From assembly GCA_048937485.1 (NCBI GenBank), contig JBHLND010000002.1, positions 7,068 through 49,997 of the forward strand: DNA of 42,930 nt, read 5' to 3'. The notes under the pieces are model-generated. The model was not told the origin of the DNA. It searched no databases and worked only from the letters and a program-made list of their open reading frames with translations. Shown here in pieces: positions 863 to 29,979 of the stretch. A program made the translations under genes and the position numbers. How positions within the stretch are numbered: the first letter of the stretch is position 1; each line of letters begins with the position of its first letter. The stretch comes from Promethearchaeota archaeon. Lineage in GTDB: Archaea > Asgardarchaeota > Thorarchaeia > Thorarchaeales > Thorarchaeaceae.

Positions 863-2131
863 TTATCTTCCCTTGAGATACTCCCTGAGCATTCTGTGTA
901 CCTGGAGCGCCGCCAAATCATTACCAATTAGCCCATGGTCAACGAGGGACCAAATTGCATGAGTGAAAATTGTCACACTAGACGCCTGAGGCGATCCATT
1001 GACTGTAGGCATAGCATATTGAGCTGCCCTAATCGTTGACCAGTCCTTCTTTGGAATATCAGGGATGATCTTCTCAAAGGCTTCAGACTTGAGATCCATC
1101 ATCCTATCCCAATAGTCTGATGCATTCTTGACTAGCCAGAGTCTGACCTTGCCTGAGTCTGGGAGGTCAATGCCGCTTGGCAATTGCTCCCAATCAGCCT
1201 CAGGTTTCTTCCTTAAGAGATTCTCAACAGTCAATTGGCCTGATGTAAGAGGCTTGTTTCCGATATTCTTCTTCAATCTCTCCAGTAACCAACCGAGCGT
1301 ATCACAGTGTACATAACCTGCTTTGGCGGCTGCTGCTATCCTTTGTGCAAAGATTCCATTGTGTCCAAGGATCCCATAATCCACTGCTGCATTAGCGAAG
1401 ACATTCTTGTGTTTTGATAGCTCTGTTGGGATTGCCATCTTCTCCATCTGGGCATCTACTCGAAATCCATCTGGAGCTCTTTTAGGCACCTTTCTGACTA
1501 GATACTCAGTAAGGTGCCATAGAGTGGCTTGGTAGGGCAGCTTGAAATCAGTCCGAGGAAGTTCATTGATTAATGAGATGGGCATAATGAACGCATGTCC
1601 TTGGTTATCCGGGTCCTCCGCAGCAAGGGACGCAGTCATTCGTTTCAATCTTATGGGATCCTCTCTCTCACCCAGTCTTAGGGCTGCCTTCAGCGCACTC
1701 ACGTGTGATTGGTCCCGTATAGCCTGTTCGTAATTTCTAAGGCTACTGCTTAGTGATTCGAGCTGTGTTTCAATATTGTACTTTGGTCCTTTTTCCCTAA
1801 CCCAATGGTCAATTGCGGCAAGGTAAAGAGCCAGTCGTTCGGCTAATGCTCTCTGAAGAGGTTCCCTGAGATCATCAGGAACTCTTACTGGAGGTTTAGT
1901 AGTCTGTCCAACCAGAAGATTCGGATTATTTCCAAGGTCTTCAATCATCCTATGCGTCGAGTACACCATTGTAGTTGAGTGTGGAGTATCAAATTCACGT
2001 TGCTCATGCCATGCAGCTGCATGCATCAGGATAGCCCACAATGCATCCGGTTGCTCTCTAGAAATCATCTCTCTCGCAAGCTCAACTGCATCGGTTTCAT
2101 TGCCATTCAAGCAGGCTTGGAAGAGAGTCAT
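863..2131 (-). CDS. hypothetical protein, predicted mostly alpha-helical with recurrent His motifs; function unknown
   Basis: Long uninterrupted ORF. I trimmed it to internal ATG (complement 2129-2131, MTLFQACLNG...) because the 28-codon extension in the track overlaps the upstream gene. Repeated His-centred motifs occur (MHAAAWHEQ, QGHAFIMP, LGHNGIFAQR, FTHAIWSL). No family recognised by eye. Confidence 0.6.
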   Translation of the reverse strand: MTLFQACLNGNETDAVELAREMISREQPDALWAILMHAAAWHEQREFDTPHSTTMVYSTHRMIEDLGNNPNLLVGQTTKPPVRVPDDLREPLQRALAERLALYLAAIDHWVREKGPKYNIETQLESLSSSLRNYEQAIRDQSHVSALKAALRLGEREDPIRLKRMTASLAAEDPDNQGHAFIMPISLINELPRTDFKLPYQATLWHLTEYLVRKVPKRAPDGFRVDAQMEKMAIPTELSKHKNVFANAAVDYGILGHNGIFAQRIAAAAKAGYVHCDTLGWLLERLKKNIGNKPLTSGQLTVENLLRKKPEADWEQLPSGIDLPDSGKVRLWLVKNASDYWDRMMDLKSEAFEKIIPDIPKKDWSTIRAAQYAMPTVNGSPQASSVTIFTHAIWSLVDHGLIGNDLAALQVHRMLREYLKGR

Positions 2132-2180
2132 TGTATGTAACCTCTGTACTACGCAACAGTGATTAGATTGGGTACGCTTG

Positions 2181-2708
2181 TCATGAAACAATAAACGCTT
2201 CCCTGCAAACCTCACAGGTGACAGTTTCCCCTTTCACGGCAATACGCTTCATCTCACTTTTGCAGTAGGGGCAAGCTGCTATTGTCTTCGGGGGAGGGCC
2301 AGTACCAGTGCCAAGAATGAAGTCTCCTGCTTCGTGATCTATTCTGCCGGAAAGCTCACGTCCATCAAGCAGGTCGTTCAGAATGCTCGTGACCTGAATG
2401 GCTCCTACTCCCGCTTCTTGGGCAATTCGTTCAATCGCAATTCTACGCATGGATTGCACTGTCTTCTTCACTGCAGTCACAGGGTCAGTTAATGCCTGTT
2501 TTACAGGTTCATAAGGCGGAGATGCGAGTGATTCACGAGCTGCCGAGAGCCCAGTCGGAATTCCTCCCAGTTGTTCAAGTCTATCTCTAAACTTCCCAGA
2601 CTTCCTATTGTACTCCTCTTCCGACATCAGTCCACGCATAAAATCAAGGTCGAGATCTTTGATTGCCGCCTGAATTCGCTTGATTTCCTCAGGGTCGCTC
2701 ATTTTCAT
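2181..2708 (-). CDS. hypothetical protein: SHOCT-like N-terminal helix, winged-helix-like middle, C-terminal CxxC-x15-CxxC zinc ribbon
   Basis: N-terminus GLMSEEEYNRKSGKFRDRLEQL. Central segment VTSILNDLLDGRELSGRIDHEAGDFILG. C-terminus CPYC-KSEMKRIAVKGETVT-CEVC. Same strand as, and 58 nt downstream of, the geranylgeranyl reductase gene. Confidence 0.6.
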   Translation of the reverse strand: MKMSDPEEIKRIQAAIKDLDLDFMRGLMSEEEYNRKSGKFRDRLEQLGGIPTGLSAARESLASPPYEPVKQALTDPVTAVKKTVQSMRRIAIERIAQEAGVGAIQVTSILNDLLDGRELSGRIDHEAGDFILGTGTGPPPKTIAACPYCKSEMKRIAVKGETVTCEVCREAFIVS

Positions 2709-6440: not shown

Positions 6441-7040
6441 TCAGTCCATTCCTAGTTTCTTGCCTTCAGGAAGCTCATCTAGAAGCAGTCCTTTCTTTTC
6501 GGCCTCTCTGACAGCAGTAGCAGCTTTCTTGCCCCCAATGTTTTCTAATGCGCCAGCAACTGTTTGCCGGACAAATAGCGATTCATCGTTTAAAGATTCA
6601 ATAAGTGAAGCCACAGCTTTCTTGTCCTTTCGTTCTCCAAGCTGGACCGCTGCATAAATTCTGACCATATATCTCGAATCGGATAAGCATTCAATAAGAT
6701 ACTTAGTTGCAGCAGGATCCTGAACTCCTCCCAGACGATCAATGGCCCCTAGAGCCACCTGATCGTCGCTACTATGAATCTCTTTTGCTAATTCATCAGC
6801 AAGGGAATGCATCTTAGCCGCAGCTTTCTTGTCAGATTTTCTTGCTGATGCCCTCTTTGCAGGTTCCTTCGCTGGGGTCTTCTTGGTTGCCTTCCTCATC
6901 TCCTTAGGTTCAGTCTTCGCGGCTTTCTTCTTGGTTTTGCTATTAGTGGCTTTCTTTTTGGCTTCTGTTCTAGCCTTCTTGGTCTTTCCACTCTTACCTG
7001 AGGTCTTGGACACTTCCTCTCTGCCTCCATAAGGGTGCAT
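6441..7040 (-). CDS. HEAT-repeat (PBS-lyase-type) protein with a Lys/Ala-rich basic N-terminal tail
   Basis: C-terminal half: AIDRLGGVQDPAATKYLIECLSDSRYMVRIYAAVQLGERKDKKAVASLIESLNDESLFVRQTVAGALENIGG (tandem HEAT-like repeats). N-terminal ~75 aa: KTSGKSGKTKKARTEAKKKATNSKTKKKAAKTEPKEMRKATKKTPAKEPAKRASARKSDKKAAAK. Confidence 0.65.
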   Translation of the reverse strand: MHPYGGREEVSKTSGKSGKTKKARTEAKKKATNSKTKKKAAKTEPKEMRKATKKTPAKEPAKRASARKSDKKAAAKMHSLADELAKEIHSSDDQVALGAIDRLGGVQDPAATKYLIECLSDSRYMVRIYAAVQLGERKDKKAVASLIESLNDESLFVRQTVAGALENIGGKKAATAVREAEKKGLLLDELPEGKKLGMD

Positions 7041-14193: not shown

Positions 14194-14586
14194 TTAATCT
14201 AGCATTGACAATAGGGCGCGTTTCAAGGCCATTCGAATGAGGCCCATAGATTCGCGCGCTCCTTCACCTGCAATTCCAGCCAGCACTATTTTGACATCGC
14301 CTAGGACGACAATGAATCCATTATCTGCAGCAATTGACACTTCCTTTAAGCCGCCCTTGTCCAGACCACTCGCCAGCTGAGATGAGTTTGATGCAATCTT
14401 TACCGCTAGAGATGCAATGTCAGAGTGCTTCACTCCTGCAGCAACAGTGTGGCCAAAGACCACATCTCCTTTTGCGTTGCAAACTACAATTCCTTCAAGA
14501 TTCTCATTCGCTGACATTGTGTTTGCCACGACTTTCTCAATCTTGGATTTGTCGACCATCTCAAAATTTCCTCCGTGCGATGCCAT
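14194..14586 (-). CDS. Roadblock/LC7 (MglB-like) domain protein
   Basis: IEKVVANTMSANENLEGIVVCNAKGDVVFGH...ASLAVKIASNSSQLASGLDKGGLKEVSIAADNGFIVVLGDVKIVLAGIAG follows the alpha-beta-alpha Roadblock pattern seen in the three paralogues at 17.4-19.3 kb. Confidence 0.75.
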   Translation of the reverse strand: MASHGGNFEMVDKSKIEKVVANTMSANENLEGIVVCNAKGDVVFGHTVAAGVKHSDIASLAVKIASNSSQLASGLDKGGLKEVSIAADNGFIVVLGDVKIVLAGIAGEGARESMGLIRMALKRALLSMLD

Positions 14587-14701: not shown

Positions 14702-15424
14702 GTGAAACGGCGTAAGAAATCTGGTTTCATAATGATTGCTTGTATCTTGTTCCTACCAGCGTTTGTTGTTGCGAACAACCAGGGTTTAAGATGGGCCGTA
14801 CAGATCGGAAATAGGCACGAGTTTTCCTTCACCTTTAGGCAGGTTGAGCATCGTACTGGCTGGCCAGATGAAGTGATAGCAATTAATGATGAAGCTATTT
14901 ACTTTGAAGTTGTGGATCTTCCCACTATCCCTGACAATATCCAATATGTTGAAGAACTAGTCTATCCGGAGATTTCCCTACATTATGAGAATGGGACTCC
15001 ACTGTCACTTTCAGATTCCCGTGTGCATTTCGCATATATTGATGGAATATTCATAGCGCCTGTGGGCAATTGGCAATTGCTGACCTCATTACCGTCCAAT
15101 ATGACCACCACAACAACTACAACAACAACAGTCACATACGAACACGAAGTAACACGTATAGACAATCTCATACACTGGGGCTGGACGTCTTCATACTCTG
15201 ATTCATGGAGTTCGCAAAACATAACCCAGGAATACTACAAATCAGATGGAGTTCTTGGCTACCTTTCACTTAACATAACAGCTTACAATGACTTCTCCAC
15301 ATTGATATCATTCGAACGATTGAATCCGCCCTCAGCTATCGGACTTGTCGAGCTCAGTCTAATCATTGGAGGAGCAGCCGCTGTTGTCATTGTTGCTATC
15401 ATTATTATAAAACGAAAAACATAG
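14702..15424 (+). CDS. surface protein with signal/anchor, poly-Thr linker and C-terminal TM + KRK tail
   Basis: N-terminal hydrophobic segment, a run of nine Thr, several N-x-S/T sequons, and a C-terminal TM (LIIGGAAAVVIVAIIII) followed by KRKT. Distant paralogue of ORF 32760-33413. GTG start. Confidence 0.6.
   Translation: MKRRKKSGFIMIACILFLPAFVVANNQGLRWAVQIGNRHEFSFTFRQVEHRTGWPDEVIAINDEAIYFEVVDLPTIPDNIQYVEELVYPEISLHYENGTPLSLSDSRVHFAYIDGIFIAPVGNWQLLTSLPSNMTTTTTTTTTVTYEHEVTRIDNLIHWGWTSSYSDSWSSQNITQEYYKSDGVLGYLSLNITAYNDFSTLISFERLNPPSAIGLVELSLIIGGAAAVVIVAIIIIKRKT
15104..15130 (+). repeat. ACC/ACA/ACT codon run encoding nine consecutive Thr
   Basis: ACCACCACAACAACTACAACAACAACA read directly from the sequence. 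It lies inside CDS 14702-15424, preceded by the sequon N-M-T. Confidence 0.9.
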
Positions 15425-15515: not shown

Positions 15516-17144
15516 ATGCCTATGCTGAGAACTAGCTCGGAGACCTTTCCGGCCTCCAAGAAAGTCATGAGCGATGTTCCTTACGTTGTTCGTGTTGAGT
15601 TCGGCGAACTAGCACGTGAAACGAAGAAGATCGTAGGAAAGCCAATTGCCTGCCATAAATGCAATGGCTTTCTACTAAGTGTGGATCAGATTAAGGATGA
15701 TCCGAAGGTTGGACAGCACTTCGTCTGTCCGTTCTGTGGAACGTTAAACGTAATTGAAGGAGAGATTGTTGTCGCTGGTGAGGACACCGACTTCGTTGTA
15801 AAGCCTCCAGAAGAAACAGTTACTGAAACTGGAGGAGTGTCTACTGGCGGTCGTTCGTTCTTGGCTCTTATTGATGTATCAGGGTCAATGGCAGGAGCTA
15901 ATCTTGCCGCAGTGAAGCGAAGCTTGACAACATCCATTGATAGTCTAGCGGCCAATGCTCCAAATACCATGTTTGGACTTATCGAGTTCGAGAGTACAGT
16001 CTTGGTTCGAAACCTAGAAACAGGTGCACCCATTGAGTTGCCTTCAGATACATTCATGAATTTGGACGATATCAAGAAAGCGACAAAGAAACTCCTTGAC
16101 AAGGTTCGCCTTGTTCAAGTGGGTGACAATGCCCCAAAGCTAAAGCAGCACGTGAGTGCTCTTCGCGACCAAGGAGGCACTGCACTTGGTCCTGCAATGG
16201 TCATGGCATCTGTTATTGCCAAGCATCGTGATGTTGGTCGGGTTGTACTTCTAACCGACGGACTTGCAAACGAGGGAATTGGAGCTCTCGAAGGCTACCA
16301 AGTCACTCCAGCAAATGCATTCTATGAGGATCTTGGAAAGTCTTTCCTAGACATGGGCGCTGCGGTAGATGTGGTTGGCATCGCATCCGGTGGCGCTATG
16401 GAGCTTCGTACCTTAGGTCTCCTACCTGAGGCAACGGGCGGTACAATGTACTACGTGACACCAAACGAACTCGATCGCAGTCTTTCAGAACTTGCTGGTG
16501 CTTCATTACTTGGTCGTGACGTCGAAGTAAAGCTGGTTACTCCTGAGGGAGTAAAGGTGAAGGACGCTTCAGGCGCGTCACGTGCAGTTCTTGATGAACT
16601 AAAGAAGAAGGGCAGCGGCAAGATAGGAGTGGTTGGAGAAGACCACGAACTCTACTTTGAGATTGAACCCGAGTCTAAAATCAAGGAGGAAGAGATTCCA
16701 ATACAGGTGCAAGTTGCCTACACAGATGAAGAAGGTGCTCGACGTGTGCGTGCAGTCACAACTAAGCTTCGTGTTTCAGACAAAGAAGACGAGATCATGA
16801 AGACCCTTGACCCCACAGTGGGGGCTACTTTCGTCACCCAGAAAGCTGGAGAAGATGCTGTTAGAGGTGACAGAAAGAAGGGCAAGGAGAGACTCGCAGC
16901 TTTCAGGTCTGCAATGAAGGTTCATGCCAAAGCGGCACCTGCCCCAGTGCAGAAGATGCTTGACAAGGCCGATGATGTTCTCGCTAGTGAAGAGGAAGAG
17001 CTTGAGCGTCAGGAGGAACGCATGAGAGAAGCTCCTGCTGGTGGTGCAGCTCCCTCTGCTGCAGCTGATATGTCTGCTGTTGAGAGCTTGGCCCAAATGA
17101 AGAGAAGCTCGAAGAAAATGTTTGACGACGAGGACGAAGCATAG
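15516..17144 (+). CDS. zinc-ribbon + von Willebrand A (MIDAS) + beta-rich domain protein with an acidic tail; Sec23/24-like domain order
   Basis: CHKC...CPFC ribbon (nt 15651-15737). vWA with DVSGS (nt 15873-15887), GGTALG and LLTDG. A beta-rich segment is followed by a helical, acidic C-terminus ending DDEDEA. GAGGT lies about 10 nt upstream of the ATG. Confidence 0.8.
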   Translation: MPMLRTSSETFPASKKVMSDVPYVVRVEFGELARETKKIVGKPIACHKCNGFLLSVDQIKDDPKVGQHFVCPFCGTLNVIEGEIVVAGEDTDFVVKPPEETVTETGGVSTGGRSFLALIDVSGSMAGANLAAVKRSLTTSIDSLAANAPNTMFGLIEFESTVLVRNLETGAPIELPSDTFMNLDDIKKATKKLLDKVRLVQVGDNAPKLKQHVSALRDQGGTALGPAMVMASVIAKHRDVGRVVLLTDGLANEGIGALEGYQVTPANAFYEDLGKSFLDMGAAVDVVGIASGGAMELRTLGLLPEATGGTMYYVTPNELDRSLSELAGASLLGRDVEVKLVTPEGVKVKDASGASRAVLDELKKKGSGKIGVVGEDHELYFEIEPESKIKEEEIPIQVQVAYTDEEGARRVRAVTTKLRVSDKEDEIMKTLDPTVGATFVTQKAGEDAVRGDRKKGKERLAAFRSAMKVHAKAAPAPVQKMLDKADDVLASEEEELERQEERMREAPAGGAAPSAAADMSAVESLAQMKRSSKKMFDDEDEA

Positions 17145-17375: not shown

Positions 17376-17672
17376 TTGATAAGTCAAGAGAAGCTGCAGT
17401 CGATTCTTAATCGGCTCAAAGACCAAGATGGCGTTCGTGGAGTCGTTGTGACTACCATGGAGGGCCTTCCTCTCAGCAGCGATCTTGACCCTGACACCAC
17501 AGAGAATATTGCTGCTATCATTACCTCTCTCGTTGGAAAGGCCCTGGATGCAGTGCGCCTTCTTCGCGAGGGGTCGTTGTCCTTCCTCACGTTGGACACA
17601 ACACAAGGTCAAATAAACATCGCACCAGATGAAAAAGAGGGCCTGATATTAGTGGTCCTAAAGAAGAATTAG
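17376..17672 (+). CDS. Roadblock/LC7 (MglB-like) domain protein
   Basis: LQSILNRLKDQDGVRGVVVTTMEGLPLSS...IAAIITSLVGKALDAV...LSFLTLDTTQGQINIAPDEKEGLILVVL. TTG start with GGTGGAG 10 nt upstream. The only nearby upstream ATG, at 17343, runs into a stop after 3 codons. Confidence 0.8.
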   Translation: MISQEKLQSILNRLKDQDGVRGVVVTTMEGLPLSSDLDPDTTENIAAIITSLVGKALDAVRLLREGSLSFLTLDTTQGQINIAPDEKEGLILVVLKKN

Positions 17673-18349: not shown

Positions 18350-18913
18350 ATGCGTAAAGATCAACAAGGTCGCATTCATCTCAAGTTAGTCTTCTACGGA
18401 CCTTCCCTCGGCGGTAAAACAACGGCCCTGAGATGGCTCTACGGGAAAGTTGAGGGTCTCCAGAAGGGTGAGTTCACTGCAATAGAAGATGAAACCAACC
18501 GTACCTTGTTCTTTGACTATGTGCCAATGAGTGCCGGCGGGCGTGTTCTCTTTGACGTATTCACTGTTGCAGGTCAGAAGCGACATAGACACCAGCGCAA
18601 GGTTGTACTCCAGGGCACTGACGGCATTCTGTTTGTTGCAGACTCGTCTCCTGACCAGAGAGATGAGAACACGGAGAGCTTTGAAGAACTAAAGCTGTTC
18701 TTGGGTGATGCGCTAGGGCGTGAGATACCCATTGTCGTTATGCTGAACAAACGAGACCTACCGAACCGGATGTCTCGCGATGAGATGCTTGACCTACTAG
18801 GTCTTGGTGGAAATGTGCCAATATACGAAACCATCGCCGTTCAAGGAGTTGGTGTCAAGAGGGCCTTTCAATCAATAGCGCGAGAGGTCATCCTTAAACG
18901 AATGTACAAGTAA
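18350..18913 (+). CDS. small Ras-superfamily GTPase of the MglA type
   Basis: G1 GPSLGGKT (nt 18398-18421), switch-I Thr (NRTLFFDY), G3 TVAGQ (nt 18563-18577; Thr instead of Asp, as in MglA), G4 NKRD (nt 18746-18757), and a G5-like ETIAVQGVGV. GGTGAGGTGA lies upstream of the ATG. Confidence 0.85.
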   Translation: MRKDQQGRIHLKLVFYGPSLGGKTTALRWLYGKVEGLQKGEFTAIEDETNRTLFFDYVPMSAGGRVLFDVFTVAGQKRHRHQRKVVLQGTDGILFVADSSPDQRDENTESFEELKLFLGDALGREIPIVVMLNKRDLPNRMSRDEMLDLLGLGGNVPIYETIAVQGVGVKRAFQSIAREVILKRMYK

Positions 18914-18921
18914 ATACCAAA

Positions 18922-19305
18922 ATGGTGAAGCCAATGGCAGAGAGCCGCGGAGATACATTGGAAAGCGTTCTTAATGAGCTGCAAGGCAGTATTCCTGAGA
19001 TTGAAGCTTGTGCTATTGTGAGTGTAGAAGGGCTTCCAATTGTATCAGCCCTACCAACTGATGTTGACGAAGCTAAAGTTGCAGCAATGACTGCAGCTAT
19101 GTTGACCCTTGGAGAGAAAGCAGCCATAGAATTAGGGAAAGGGAATCTAGAACAGGTCAACATCAAGGGAGTTGATGGGTGGCTACTTGTTGTTCAGGCA
19201 GGAATGAATGCATGTCTTACTGTTTCAACAACTGCAAGCGCCAAGCTTGGAATGGTATTTCTTGAAATGAAGAGAGCTGCTGAGAAAGTATCAGGGATGA
19301 TTTAG
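18922..19305 (+). CDS. Roadblock/LC7 (MglB-like) domain protein
   Basis: LESVLNELQGSIPEIEACAIVSVEGLPIVSALP...VAAMTAAMLTLGEKAAIELGKGNLEQVNIKGVDGWLLVVQAG. Lies 8 nt after the GTPase stop, the classic MglA-MglB adjacency. Confidence 0.8.
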   Translation: MVKPMAESRGDTLESVLNELQGSIPEIEACAIVSVEGLPIVSALPTDVDEAKVAAMTAAMLTLGEKAAIELGKGNLEQVNIKGVDGWLLVVQAGMNACLTVSTTASAKLGMVFLEMKRAAEKVSGMI

Positions 19306-20233: not shown

Positions 20234-21430
20234 TTGGCTAGGAAGCCTATCGATGTCTACCGTGGACTGATCGCAACAACAATCCCCAGCGACGTCGCAT
20301 CACATATTGACTCTGTAGTAGGTCGCTACTCCACTCAGGTCTATGCGGGACAGAAGTTGACAATGCACCTTTCACGATTTGTGGAGATATGCTGCAAGCT
20401 AATCACCTTTCTTGATTCTAGGAATGCATCAGACCTCTCTGATCTTGCTAACGCTATCGATGTTCTCGACTACTTCACCTCAACCTCCAAGTGGTGGACT
20501 ATGTCTAGAGAAGACCCTGGTTTTCTTCTAAGACCCCCATCCCGAGATCCTAGAGAATTCATGCTCTCTTTGGCAGCTGTTCAGATTGGAGGAGATACAT
20601 CTGGAAGAGTCGCAGGAGCATCTGAAAAGCTTGCGAGATTCTTCGAAGACCATGGAATCACTGATACCAGAGTATGTGAGAAATTATGCGAGCGTTTTGT
20701 TTCGTCTTGGATCCTCCTGAGCGGCCTCGTATGCAAGAGCCAAGGGCGTAATATCACTACTGAAGGTGATTTCGAAATCGCCTATGACATCATGCGAGTT
20801 CTTCTCTTCTATACATCCCTTGACGACTTCAAAGCTCTCACCGCGATTCGTAGACTCGCAACTGATCCAAAGATTCCAAAACTTGCTGAAGTTTCCTTTA
20901 CTCCGGGATTCGAACGCAAACTAGATTCATCGATGGCTGCACGTCTTGAAAGATCAAACGAGGAAAAACTCGCGAAAATTGTTCCATCCTCACCAAGTGC
21001 ATCTCGCAACCTACTCACCAACTCGCTAAAGCTCCTAGCACAGATGAAGGCTATCGAACAAGGACTAATACGCATTGAGGAAAGCAACTATGATAGTCTA
21101 ATTCTTGGAGCCATGGAGATGCTGGAGCAAGTGGGAATCTCGCAGGATAGCTTCCGCGATGAAACATCTGTAAAAGCACTCTTTCTAGCTATACAGCCGG
21201 ATACGGGAACTGATGAGAAGATTGGTCTACTGATTAGAAGACTTGAAGGGCTACTGGTTGATTCCACTGGAAGCAAGGACTTTTTGCTACAGAATGCCAA
21301 ATTAATCCCAAGAATGGTCGCTTTGCTACTTCTTCTAGCTGGAGTGACCAAAGTATCTGAAATAGCAGGTTTGCAAGATGCAGACCTGAAGCGTGGTTTG
21401 ATTCTGTTTCACAGACTGCTTAATGGCTAG
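20234..21430 (+). CDS. hypothetical protein, predicted helical (398 aa); no recognisable family
   Basis: Long ORF with a TTG start preceded by a strong GAGGAGG about 10 nt upstream. Helix-favouring, Leu-rich composition throughout, with no TM segments. Its 3' end overlaps the convergent acdB gene by 11 nt. Confidence 0.6.
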   Translation: MARKPIDVYRGLIATTIPSDVASHIDSVVGRYSTQVYAGQKLTMHLSRFVEICCKLITFLDSRNASDLSDLANAIDVLDYFTSTSKWWTMSREDPGFLLRPPSRDPREFMLSLAAVQIGGDTSGRVAGASEKLARFFEDHGITDTRVCEKLCERFVSSWILLSGLVCKSQGRNITTEGDFEIAYDIMRVLLFYTSLDDFKALTAIRRLATDPKIPKLAEVSFTPGFERKLDSSMAARLERSNEEKLAKIVPSSPSASRNLLTNSLKLLAQMKAIEQGLIRIEESNYDSLILGAMEMLEQVGISQDSFRDETSVKALFLAIQPDTGTDEKIGLLIRRLEGLLVDSTGSKDFLLQNAKLIPRMVALLLLLAGVTKVSEIAGLQDADLKRGLILFHRLLNG

Positions 21431-28543: not shown

Positions 28544-28801
28544 CTAACCCGGTTCTCCCCGACACAAGCATTCTCGACCCTCGTCCATAGCTCCCCCTTT
28601 TCTTCTTGCTAGGAACACCAACACTATCACCACATCAAGAACTGCTGCACCTATAATAAGGAGGGGTTCAACTGGTAGCCCAATCGATACCACAGTCAAG
28701 ACAGCAAATCTGCTATTCGATTCCATATACCTTTGAACTAGCATTATTGCTGGTTTAACAATGCACCCATCTATCTTCCTCGCCATCTTCGATAGATCCA
28801 A
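28544..28801 (-). CDS. small membrane protein, unknown function (real start possibly ATG at 28744)
   Basis: Hydrophobic helices FAVLTVVSIGLPVEPLLIIGAAVLDVVIVLVFL. The first 19 codons overlap the end of ORF 28771-29979. The internal Met20 would remove the overlap. Confidence 0.35.
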   Translation of the reverse strand: MDLSKMARKIDGCIVKPAIMLVQRYMESNSRFAVLTVVSIGLPVEPLLIIGAAVLDVVIVLVFLARRKGGAMDEGRECLCRGEPG

Positions 28802-29979
28802 TCCGCTACTATCAATGTACTCACAACAATAGTAATGATCCCATTTGCTAGAAATGCCGCCGCCGGGAATCTTACTATTCCAAAGCCAATACTAAACCAA
28901 GGTCCGTCAGTGATGAGCCTTTTTCCATACAAATTCCCATTTTCTGTTCGGACAATGACGCCATCCCATCCGACGGCCCAGCCATGAGTTTCGTTGATGA
29001 AATCAACAGCGTTGAGACTTGCGGATCTTGGCATCTGGTCATACCACGTTTTTCCCCCGTCAGGCGTATAGGCCACTGCCGGATTGCCTGATCCTACAAG
29101 CCAGCCTTTTTGGTTGCCAATGAATTCCATGTCTTTATAGAAATCGATTCTCCAGCTTCGCTGCGAGACAACCATGTCAGGGCTCCAATTTTGACCATCT
29201 GTTGTGTGTGCGATTCCCAGGTCATAGCCTAACGCCCATGCATGAGTTCCGTTGGAAGCAGACATGGAATATGCCCTTTGCTCTCGCTCATGAATCCAAG
29301 TTTCTCCTCCATCCGCAGAATGGAAGATTCCGTCATAACCACAACACCATATGTTTGTTCTATTAACAAAATGAATCTGATACAAAGACGAGTCAAACGA
29401 CCATGATTGGACTTCTTGCCAGGTTTCGCCTGAGTCAAAGGTCTCGAAGAGCTGGTGATTACCGCTGGCGAGACCATAAGTATTATTGAGGAATTCCACA
29501 GTTGATGCCCTTCCGTAAACGCCGTAGACGGATTGCCATGTCTGCCCCCTATCTTCTGTGCGGAGCAGACCCCATCGAGTTGCTACCCAAATTCTCTCAG
29601 AATCCACTATCTCGATATGCATAATATAGTCATTCTGTCGGGAATAAACGATATCCCAAGTTTCCCCGCCATCATCAGTGTGCCAGATAATTCCATGCCC
29701 TATGTCTTCATATTCCATTCCAACATCACCTTTACCAACGACCCATCCTTCTGTGGCATTATAGAAGGCAACATCAAAATGCTGTTCTACCTCCCATTCA
29801 TGTGACTCAACAAGATATTCCCAAGTCGCTTGAGGTTCGCGAATTGCTGTTTCCAACTCAGTCACCGCTACTGTGCATATTACAAGCAGAATGGACAGTA
29901 GAACCAATCCCATCAATTCTCGGCTTGGCACGAAGTTATTCCCACCTACACCTCTTCGGATTACAGCGAAACGTTTCAA
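28771..29979 (-). CDS. membrane-anchored seven-bladed Asp-box (BNR/Ycf48-like) beta-propeller protein
   Basis: Six clear Asp-boxes: HTDDGGETW, RTEDRGQTW, TFDSGETW, SADGGETW, TTDGQNW, TPDGGKTW. A seventh, degenerate one is RTENGNLY. There is an N-terminal TM (LMGLVLLSILLVICTVAV) and a C-terminal hydrophobic segment followed by RRWRGR. Confidence 0.75.
   Translation of the reverse strand: MKRFAVIRRGVGGNNFVPSRELMGLVLLSILLVICTVAVTELETAIREPQATWEYLVESHEWEVEQHFDVAFYNATEGWVVGKGDVGMEYEDIGHGIIWHTDDGGETWDIVYSRQNDYIMHIEIVDSERIWVATRWGLLRTEDRGQTWQSVYGVYGRASTVEFLNNTYGLASGNHQLFETFDSGETWQEVQSWSFDSSLYQIHFVNRTNIWCCGYDGIFHSADGGETWIHEREQRAYSMSASNGTHAWALGYDLGIAHTTDGQNWSPDMVVSQRSWRIDFYKDMEFIGNQKGWLVGSGNPAVAYTPDGGKTWYDQMPRSASLNAVDFINETHGWAVGWDGVIVRTENGNLYGKRLITDGPWFSIGFGIVRFPAAAFLANGIITIVVSTLIVADWIYRRWRGR

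Follow-up and report, generated by a model that had tools for sequence, protein, structure and literature searches.

In this work we describe a gene whose product is homologous to the core of the eukaryotic COPII coat subunits Sec23 and Sec24, located on a stretch of 42,930 nucleotides (nt) from a Promethearchaeota archaeon of the Thorarchaeaceae (assembly GCA_048937485.1, contig JBHLND010000002.1, positions 7,068-49,997 of the forward strand). This whole stretch is referred to below as the window, and coordinates are counted from its first letter. An initial annotation, made from the sequence, had proposed that the protein combines a zinc ribbon, a vWA domain and a beta-sandwich in the layout of the Sec23/24 core, and that it nevertheless carries an intact MIDAS (metal-ion-dependent adhesion site). 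The gene and the domains of its product, as defined from the open reading frame (ORF), Pfam matches, an AlphaFold model and Foldseek searches, are as follows.

15516-17144, plus strand: Sec23/24-like gene with an ATG start, encoding 542 amino acids (aa); the product has a split beta-sandwich, an inserted zinc ribbon, a MIDAS-bearing vWA 'trunk' and a helical C-terminal domain, without a gelsolin domain
15516-15635, plus strand: residues 1-40, N-terminal strands (4-6, 10-12, 23-28 and 37-40); predicted local distance difference test (pLDDT) of the model 87-95
15642-15755, plus strand: four-Cys zinc ribbon, residues 43-80, C46-x2-C49 ... C71-P-F-C74-G-T-L-N78, with the CxFCxxxN signature
15855-16505, plus strand: vWA / Sec23 trunk domain, residues 114-330, with Sec23_trunk, VWA_2 and VWA Pfam matches
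15873-15887, plus strand: MIDAS loop 1, D120-V-S122-G-S124, invariant in the alignments
16179-16181, plus strand: MIDAS Thr222 (GGTALGPA), invariant in the alignments
16257-16259, plus strand: MIDAS Asp248 within LLTDGLANEGIG; the xNxGxG part is common to Sec23/24, where the Asp is Gly
16506-16778, plus strand: beta-sandwich (Sec23_BS), residues 331-421, with a Pfam match over residues 335-421
16785-17141, plus strand: helical domain, residues 424-542, with a conserved ...[KR]xSxKxxF motif and then an acidic tail at the end

Translation of the ORF bears out the motifs that had been claimed for it: the four cysteines of the ribbon (C46, C49, C71 and C74, nt 15651-15737), the D120-V-S-G-S124 loop at nt 15873-15887, GGT222ALG and LLTD248G are present, as are the beta-rich segments and the acidic C-terminus ...KKMFDDEDEA. 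Two details required amendment. The spacer between NGFL and FVC within the ribbon, given as 17 residues, comprises 15 (residues 54-68), and the proposed linker of about 40 residues between ribbon and vWA domain is a linker only in part, residues 101-111 being disordered and residues 91-96 forming a strand in a confident model. In the same model strands and helices alternate through the vWA domain, the beta-sandwich is built from strands 331-341, 346-352, 367-374, 378-385, 393-403 and 409-421, and the C-terminal helices occupy residues 433-449, 453-471, 476-504 and 515-528. The assignment of residues 1-40 is based on the alignment of the family profile, from its position 9, to the N-terminus of Sec24A; their strands are taken as part of the beta-sandwich, onto which they probably pack. 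The product is a soluble protein of several domains that has the core fold of Sec23/24 and no gelsolin domain. The Sec23_helical and gelsolin Pfam models gave no match in the 542-aa protein even at E<=1, and the chain ends at residue 542, after the helical region.

Homology to the Sec23/24 core was demonstrated by Pfam, profile and structural comparisons, and extends across the zinc finger, the trunk and the beta-sandwich and at least into the beginning of the helical domain, in agreement with the layout first proposed. In the comparison of Pfam models that the initial annotation had suggested, Sec23_trunk (PF04811; 46.1 bits against a cut-off of 27, E=6e-12) scored above the generic models VWA_2 (36 bits) and VWA (27.1 bits), both of which also exceeded their cut-offs. 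Sec23_BS (PF08033) passed marginally, with 34.2 bits against a cut-off of 33.5, and zf-Sec23_Sec24 stayed under its cut-off (16.5 bits against 25), the finger being recognised as of the Sec23/24 type by its motif and by profile alignment rather than by the curated Pfam threshold. Its CxFCxxxN signature reads FVCPFCGTLN here, WRCNFCRLAN in yeast Sec24 and WACNFCYQRN in human Sec23A.

When the single sequence was searched against the PDB, Sec24C/D was matched weakly (23 bits), at about the level of the archaeal regulator ArnB (8S05, 22 bits). A profile built from 31 diverse relatives at 23-68% identity (alignment A2) matched yeast Sec24 with 91 bits (E=5e-25, profile positions 41-471), human Sec24A with 88 bits (positions 9-457) and Sec23A with 43 bits; by extending to position 471 the Sec24 alignment enters the helical region and reaches at least its start. 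ArnB scored 51.5 bits with this profile, its best stretch covering only positions 109-175. From the same alignment AlphaFold produced a model with a pLDDT of 89.4 and a predicted template modelling (pTM) score of 0.90, which was used in place of one based on 35 close Thorarchaeota sequences that proved unusable (pLDDT 47.7). A Foldseek search of the PDB with this model returned Sec23 or Sec24 chains for all of the top 46 matches (E 5e-30 to 8e-21), with query template modelling (TM) scores of 0.62-0.73 over 507-694 aligned columns, or nearly the whole protein. The first non-coat match was 4fx5, an ArnB-like vWA protein from Catenulispora (E=2e-17, TM 0.49), and no ArnB entry was found among the top 50. 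Given these Pfam, profile and Foldseek matches, the possibility raised in the initial annotation, that no significant profile or structural match to Sec23/24 might be found, therefore does not apply.

The description of a Sec23/24 layout with an intact MIDAS likewise proved correct, because the site is complete in this protein and has lost residues in both yeast Sec24 and human Sec23A. The five MIDAS residues (D120, S122, S124, T222 and D248), which make up the metal-coordinating set DxSxS ... T ... D, and the four Cys show no variation among 35 Thorarchaeota orthologues or across the alignment of 31 sequences. Together with the N252-x-G254-x-G256 strand they are also essentially invariant across 121 aligned representatives of about 25-30% overall identity, 30 of them from the Asgard clade and 91 from the long-form and eukaryotic clade described below. 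Yeast Sec24 retains D-V-S-Q-S and the NxGxG strand, with Gly replacing D248 (VVSGTLPNLGIG). In human Sec23A, for which we used a sequence 100% identical to PDB 3eg9_A over residues 1-557, the first loop reads D-T-C-M-E, its serines lost, and the last strand, read by eye as MFIGGPATQGPG, has Gly at the position of D248. From these comparisons the coat proteins look like derivatives in which the metal site has been lost, and the strict conservation of the site outside them provides a concrete mutational handle (D120, S122).

Judged by its sequence, the gene is the Thorarchaeota orthologue of Asgard Sec23/24-like proteins that have already been annotated and published, and the core finding is therefore already known. 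A homologue search returned 279 homologues, the best 120 of which are 73-97% identical; the source-named sequences among these 120 come from Thorarchaeota or Promethearchaeota metagenome-assembled genomes. A homologue from Thorarchaeota SMTZ1-45 (P0017, 78% identical), of equal length and with a matching gene neighbourhood, bears the name 'SEC24 family transport protein'. Proteins with Sec23/24 domains are said to have been reported in Thorarchaeota with the original description of the Asgard superphylum, and COPII Sec23/24 homologues are named among the Asgard eukaryotic signature proteins in reviews and later genomic papers. According to a 2025 study, Asgard Sec23-like proteins all lack both the Sar1-contact residues and the gelsolin domain, which supplies the key catalytic GTPase-activating protein (GAP) residue of Sec23, and Foldseek searches with them return Sec23 (PMC11914678). 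Compared with the description given in that paper, the window protein has the same domain set (zinc finger, trunk, beta-sandwich and helical domain, without gelsolin) and shows no substantive difference.

Further relatives emerged when 1.84 billion cluster representatives were searched exhaustively with HMMER. The search yielded 962 matches, 587 of them below 1e-10. Some 30-40 of these matches are collinear proteins of 500-570 aa, the named ones coming from Helarchaeota, Hermodarchaeota and Promethearchaeota. A larger group consists of proteins of 580-900 aa that score 96-141 bits and align with the query from about its residue 129 as far as the C-terminus, and its named members are all eukaryotic. 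Matches named 'circularly permutated Ras protein 1-like' were found in sea urchin, starfish and amphioxus, and other named eukaryotic relatives include choanoflagellate transcripts, Platysulcus and a 547-aa Entamoeba vWA protein. The long-form relatives contain the same Pfam set (zinc finger, VWA, Sec23_trunk and Sec23_BS), to which P0167 adds a Ras domain (162 bits) in front, and an N-terminal, circularly permuted Ras-like (cpRAS) GTPase is fused to the core in 18 of the 150 top representatives. This architecture is that of the cpRAS-VWA family, described in 2008 together with cpRAS-less zinc-finger-VWA cousins at a time when no archaeal members were known; its conserved half consists of a four-Cys finger followed by a VWA domain that Pfam calls Sec23 trunk (Elias & Novotny, PMC2430557). 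The window protein shares with cpRAS-VWA proteins the four-Cys finger, the vWA domain with an intact MIDAS, the beta-sandwich and the helical C-terminus in collinear order (e.g. query 130-534). Most eukaryotic members differ from it in an N-terminal extension of 200-450 residues, whereas the window protein has about 45 residues before its finger and no GTPase domain; relatives without cpRAS are also part of the published family (PMC2430557).

The query scored 96-141 bits against the long-form and eukaryotic representatives versus 23 bits against Sec24, and a yeast Sec24 fragment reached at most 29 bits with any Asgard or long-form/eukaryotic member. With cpRAS-VWA proteins and their kin so much closer than Sec23/24, the earlier suggestion of an intermediate on the way toward the coat adaptor is too simple. 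In a quick, distance-based neighbor-joining tree the Asgard proteins formed one clade and every named eukaryotic member fell into another, with Sec24 as an outgroup on a saturated branch. We conclude that the window protein belongs to a family common to Asgard archaea and eukaryotes (cpRAS-VWA / zinc-finger-VWA) that is homologous to but distinct from Sec23/24. The main text of the 2025 study is silent on MIDAS, vWA, gene neighbourhood and cpRAS relatives (PMC11914678), no paper mentioning both cpRAS and Asgard was found in the literature searched, and as far as this literature extends the kinship between Asgard and cpRAS-VWA proteins is an aspect outside earlier descriptions. That Ras-fused eukaryotic relatives are nearer to the Asgard proteins than Sec23/24 are calls into question a simple lineage from an Asgard protein to Sec23, and the cpRAS proteins of Dictyostelium (PMC2430557) offer a eukaryotic model for possible work on the ancestral function. 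As a separate observation, a further match (P0229, 1089 aa) joins the zinc finger-VWA core to Kelch and ankyrin repeats, showing reuse of this core beyond the cpRAS fusion.

The Sec23/24-like gene is flanked by genes for Roadblock proteins and for a small GTPase of the MglA type, located as follows.

14194-14586, minus strand: weak Roadblock-like gene, divergent and upstream of the Sec23-like gene; Robl_LC7 15.8 bits, under the cut-off
17376-17672, plus strand: RoblA, short Roadblock gene (RBLC7 / dynein light chain type); Robl_LC7 59 bits
17690-18160, plus strand: RoblB, long Roadblock gene (MglB / LAMTOR2-3-like), most similar to MglB and LAMTOR2
18350-18913, plus strand: MglA-type small GTPase with the G3 motif TVAGQ; 133 bits, E=8e-38 to MglA
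18922-19305, plus strand: RoblC, Roadblock gene in the position of an MglB-like partner, 9 nt after the GTPase; Robl_LC7 59.5 bits, 83.7 bits to 7f8m

The neighbouring GTPase has Arf as its best Pfam match, yet it scored 133 bits with Thermus and Myxococcus MglA versus at most 49 bits with any Arf or Sar1, and its G3 motif reads TVAGQ where DxxGQ is usual, with Thr in place of Asp. The initial annotation had seen in this neighbourhood the logic of a coat subunit placed beside its regulatory GTPase; with a GTPase of the MglA and not the Arf/Sar type, that parallel is not like-for-like. The closer likeness is to the MglA/MglB switch, in the score and G3 motif of the GTPase, in the Roadblock gene that follows it after 9 nt and in the resemblance of RoblB to MglB. 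This likeness concerns the neighbouring genes only, and the switch has one MglB where the Thorarchaeota neighbourhood has three to four Roadblock paralogues. The GTPase gene and RoblC (18350-18913 and 18922-19305) represent in their own right an MglA/MglB-like pair in an Asgard genome. RoblA scored 88 bits with 7f8f and 50 bits with the dynein roadblock light chain, and in Thorarchaeota it always lies about 200 nt downstream of the Sec23-like gene.

In general, the neighbourhood is well conserved among Thorarchaeota. Across 26 loci (at least 55% identity) the gene order ScpB-ScpA-SMC-Robl on one side and Sec23L-RoblA-RoblB-GTPase-RoblC-UPPS-hyp398-ACD on the other is kept, Sec23L being the Sec23-like gene and UPPS that for an undecaprenyl-diphosphate-synthase-family protein. 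The divergent Roadblock-like gene has its orthologue in L001-L025, that is in every Thorarchaeota locus reaching that far, and the MglA-type GTPase and Roadblock genes adjoin the Sec23-like gene in at least 20 Thorarchaeota genomes. Median gaps at these junctions are 202 nt between Sec23L and RoblA, 24 nt between RoblA and RoblB and 13 nt between the GTPase gene and RoblC, and in one locus (L015) an inversion breakpoint lies directly after the GTPase gene. Taken with the insertions between RoblB and the GTPase gene described below, these junctions suggest separate units. That the Sec23-like gene has an MglA/Roadblock module beside it, and not an Arf/Sar GTPase, provides a testable set of candidate partners.

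We also compared 24 distant Asgard loci, at 25-44% identity, which comprise Hermod-, Jord-, Frey- and 'Odin'-labelled genomes, Lokiarchaeum ossiferum and others. A small GTPase gene occurs near the Sec23-like gene in a single clade of five of these loci (L039, L041, L044, L046 and L050), where the order is Rce1-like protease, Ras-family GTPase, beta-flower protein, peroxiredoxin and Sec23-like gene. This Ras-family GTPase was considered as independent synteny support and rejected, as seven GTPase ORFs in 382 kb agree with the background expected from GTPases making up roughly 2% of the genes in Asgard genomes. The five loci are of interest in another respect: at about 7.4-9.2 kb in the locus, the gene for the Rce1-like CAAX protease lies directly upstream of that for the Ras-family GTPase (155 bits, Pfam Ras), and none of the GTPases in this clade ends in a CAAX box (their ends read ...FEKYSK or FENC).

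Considering these findings together, we propose with moderate confidence that the protein, a gelsolin-less Sec23/24-like member of the cpRAS-VWA / zinc-finger-VWA family, would act as a metal-dependent, protein-binding adaptor working with a small-GTPase switch. It is a soluble four-domain protein in which a beta-sandwich, interrupted by the four-Cys zinc ribbon and the vWA 'trunk', is followed by a helical domain. In other vWA domains with a MIDAS, such as those of integrin I domains, midasin and CbbO-type proteins, the ligand contributes an acidic side chain that completes the bound cation. Because of this, an acidic residue of a partner may, by analogy, complete the cation here, which would make the protein a metal-dependent protein-protein adaptor. 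That a small-GTPase switch would partner this adaptor is suggested by the recurrent fusion of a Ras-like GTPase in cis in many of the nearest eukaryotic relatives and, less strongly, by the Thorarchaeota cluster, in which the adjoining MglA/Roadblock genes could supply the switch in trans. A GAP activity of the Sec23 type, toward a GTPase of the Sar1 type, is unlikely given the absence of the gelsolin domain; a self-sufficient coat is also unlikely, and no positive evidence points to a coat function. A further step, which we regard as possible but doubtful, is that the GTPase partnership is ancestral and that a GTPase-switched, metal-dependent adaptor predates COPII, Sec23/24 being derived from it through duplication, loss of the MIDAS and gain of the gelsolin domain. 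If true, the partnership would appear as a fusion in eukaryotes and as MglA/Roadblock genes encoded alongside in Thorarchaeota.

Several considerations weigh against the proposal of a GTPase-switched adaptor. Metal binding at the MIDAS is predicted from sequence only. Three Asgard Sec23-like proteins examined in yeast co-precipitated with an Asgard Arf only weakly and in a nucleotide-independent manner (PMC11914678). The neighbor-joining tree is rough, the branch leading to Sec24 being long and saturated, and the clade referred to as eukaryotic is source-named only in part. The Thorarchaeota adjacency says little about function, because housekeeping flanks (SMC, ScpAB, UPPS etc.) are collinear too, and within it the junction between RoblB and the GTPase gene is an insertion hot spot, with insertions of more than 600 nt (0.7-3.9 kb) in 8 of 22 genomes (L004, L006, L009, L010, L011, L019, L022 and L025). 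Hidden Markov model searches found no Roadblock gene within about 10 kb in the 24 distant Asgard loci. Since GTPases there are also at background level, the conserved adjacency with GTPase and Roadblock genes that the initial annotation had anticipated holds among Thorarchaeota and is essentially lost beyond them.

The fold and domain order of the protein could instead be taken to indicate a primordial adaptor for cargo or for a COPII-like inner coat, which the small GTPase and Roadblock proteins encoded next to it would recruit and regulate, as Sar1 recruits Sec23/24. In accordance with this, the CxFCxxxN finger, the vWA-like trunk with its xNxGxG strand and the beta-sandwich are collinear with those of Sec23 and Sec24, as is the beginning of the helical domain; GTPase and Roadblock genes adjoin in all Thorarchaeota loci, and eukaryotic relatives carry a GTPase fused to this core. 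We nevertheless consider it unlikely, as the protein is without the gelsolin domain of the coat subunits and hence without the GAP residue placed there, and in the 2025 study Asgard Sec23-like proteins were missing the Sar1-contact residues and bound an Asgard Arf weakly and independently of nucleotide (PMC11914678). Furthermore, the neighbour GTPase is MglA-type, whereas the partner of Sec23/Sec24 is Sar1, and the adjacency is gone in 24 of the 24 distant loci. The gene cluster yielded no outer-coat or membrane element, and the scanned ORFs of the window showed neither a second Sec23-like copy nor a gene for an outer coat.

A second comparison of domain architecture leads to the ArnB/ArnE-ArnA regulators of the Sulfolobus archaellum (PDB 8S05), which have the same general layout as the window protein: a split beta-sandwich that harbours a MIDAS vWA domain, and after it a helical bundle. 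The zinc finger of ArnA docks in trans on the sandwich and helical domains of ArnB, and the 2026 paper on the ArnA/ArnB structure states that Sec23/24 have the ArnB-type arrangement of vWA, beta-sandwich and helical domains (PMC12852372). The window protein would then be an ArnB-type signalling module with phospho-regulated C-terminal helices and an ArnA-like zinc finger in cis, a reading consistent with the matches to 8S05 by single protein and profile and with the ArnB-like 4fx5 as the first non-coat structure. We judge this to be quite unlikely, however: the Foldseek E-values of Sec23/24 are better by more than 10 orders of magnitude and their TM-score is higher (0.73 versus 0.49), in line with the structural check that the initial annotation had put forward, the profile match to ArnB is confined to the short stretch noted above, and the CxFCxxxN finger agrees with that of Sec23/24. 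ArnA is moreover a separate protein with a zinc finger and an FHA domain, whereas the finger of the window protein is in cis, and ArnAB are under kinase/phosphatase control, whereas Pfam scans of the window ORFs contain no FHA or Ser/Thr kinase family. A third alternative, that of a generic prokaryotic vWA protein (MoxR/BatA/YfbK-like or a defence part) with a likeness to Sec23/24 due to the vWA fold alone, is very improbable and is largely refuted by the profile and Foldseek results. The VWA_2 and VWA models did exceed their cut-offs, and bacterial vWA proteins were matched weakly over residues ~116-400, but these bacterial matches are without the zinc-finger region, the Sec23-specific beta-sandwich and the finger align too, the structural match to Sec23/24 spans nearly the whole protein, and no AAA+ (MoxR-type) family was found in Pfam scans of the window ORFs. 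A role in defence was dropped, a PADLOC scan of the cluster having returned no matches.

We retain the metal-dependent adaptor working with a small-GTPase switch as the preferred reading. The Asgard genes cited as precursors of the endomembrane system of eukaryotes include those for Sec23/24-like proteins; the window adds no new gene to them, and it sharpens the reading of the family through the metal site, the Ras-fused kin and the MglA/Roadblock cluster.

With about 46% GC the window is ordinary archaeal chromosome, and a tRNA scan detected no tRNA gene in its 42,930 nt. It also encodes ribosomal proteins S8e and L10e, SRP54, deoxyhypusine synthase, a DRG-type GTPase, SMC, ScpA and ScpB, HypA, a HypE-like protein and a prenyltransferase of the undecaprenyl-diphosphate-synthase family. 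Between the Roadblock-like gene and the Sec23-like gene lies an ORF of 240 aa (14702-15424, plus strand) that is hydrophobic in its N- and C-terminal segments and contains nine consecutive threonines. It has no Pfam match and no counterpart in the 26 syntenic Thorarchaeota loci, and therefore looks like a lineage-specific insertion. A protein of 398 aa (20234-21430, plus strand), without a Pfam or PADLOC match, follows the prenyltransferase gene downstream and is conserved there in those Thorarchaeota loci that reach far enough. Elsewhere in the window, a 175-aa protein (2181-2708, minus strand) contains a PCI domain (24.7 bits, cut-off 22), a domain typical of the proteasome lid, COP9 and eIF3; its gene overlaps the start of a 450-aa ORF (863-2215, minus strand) that has no Pfam match. 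Away from the Sec23-like gene, the window further encodes a BNR/Sortilin-Vps10-like beta-propeller protein (28771-29979, minus strand) and a HEAT-repeat protein (6441-7040, minus strand).

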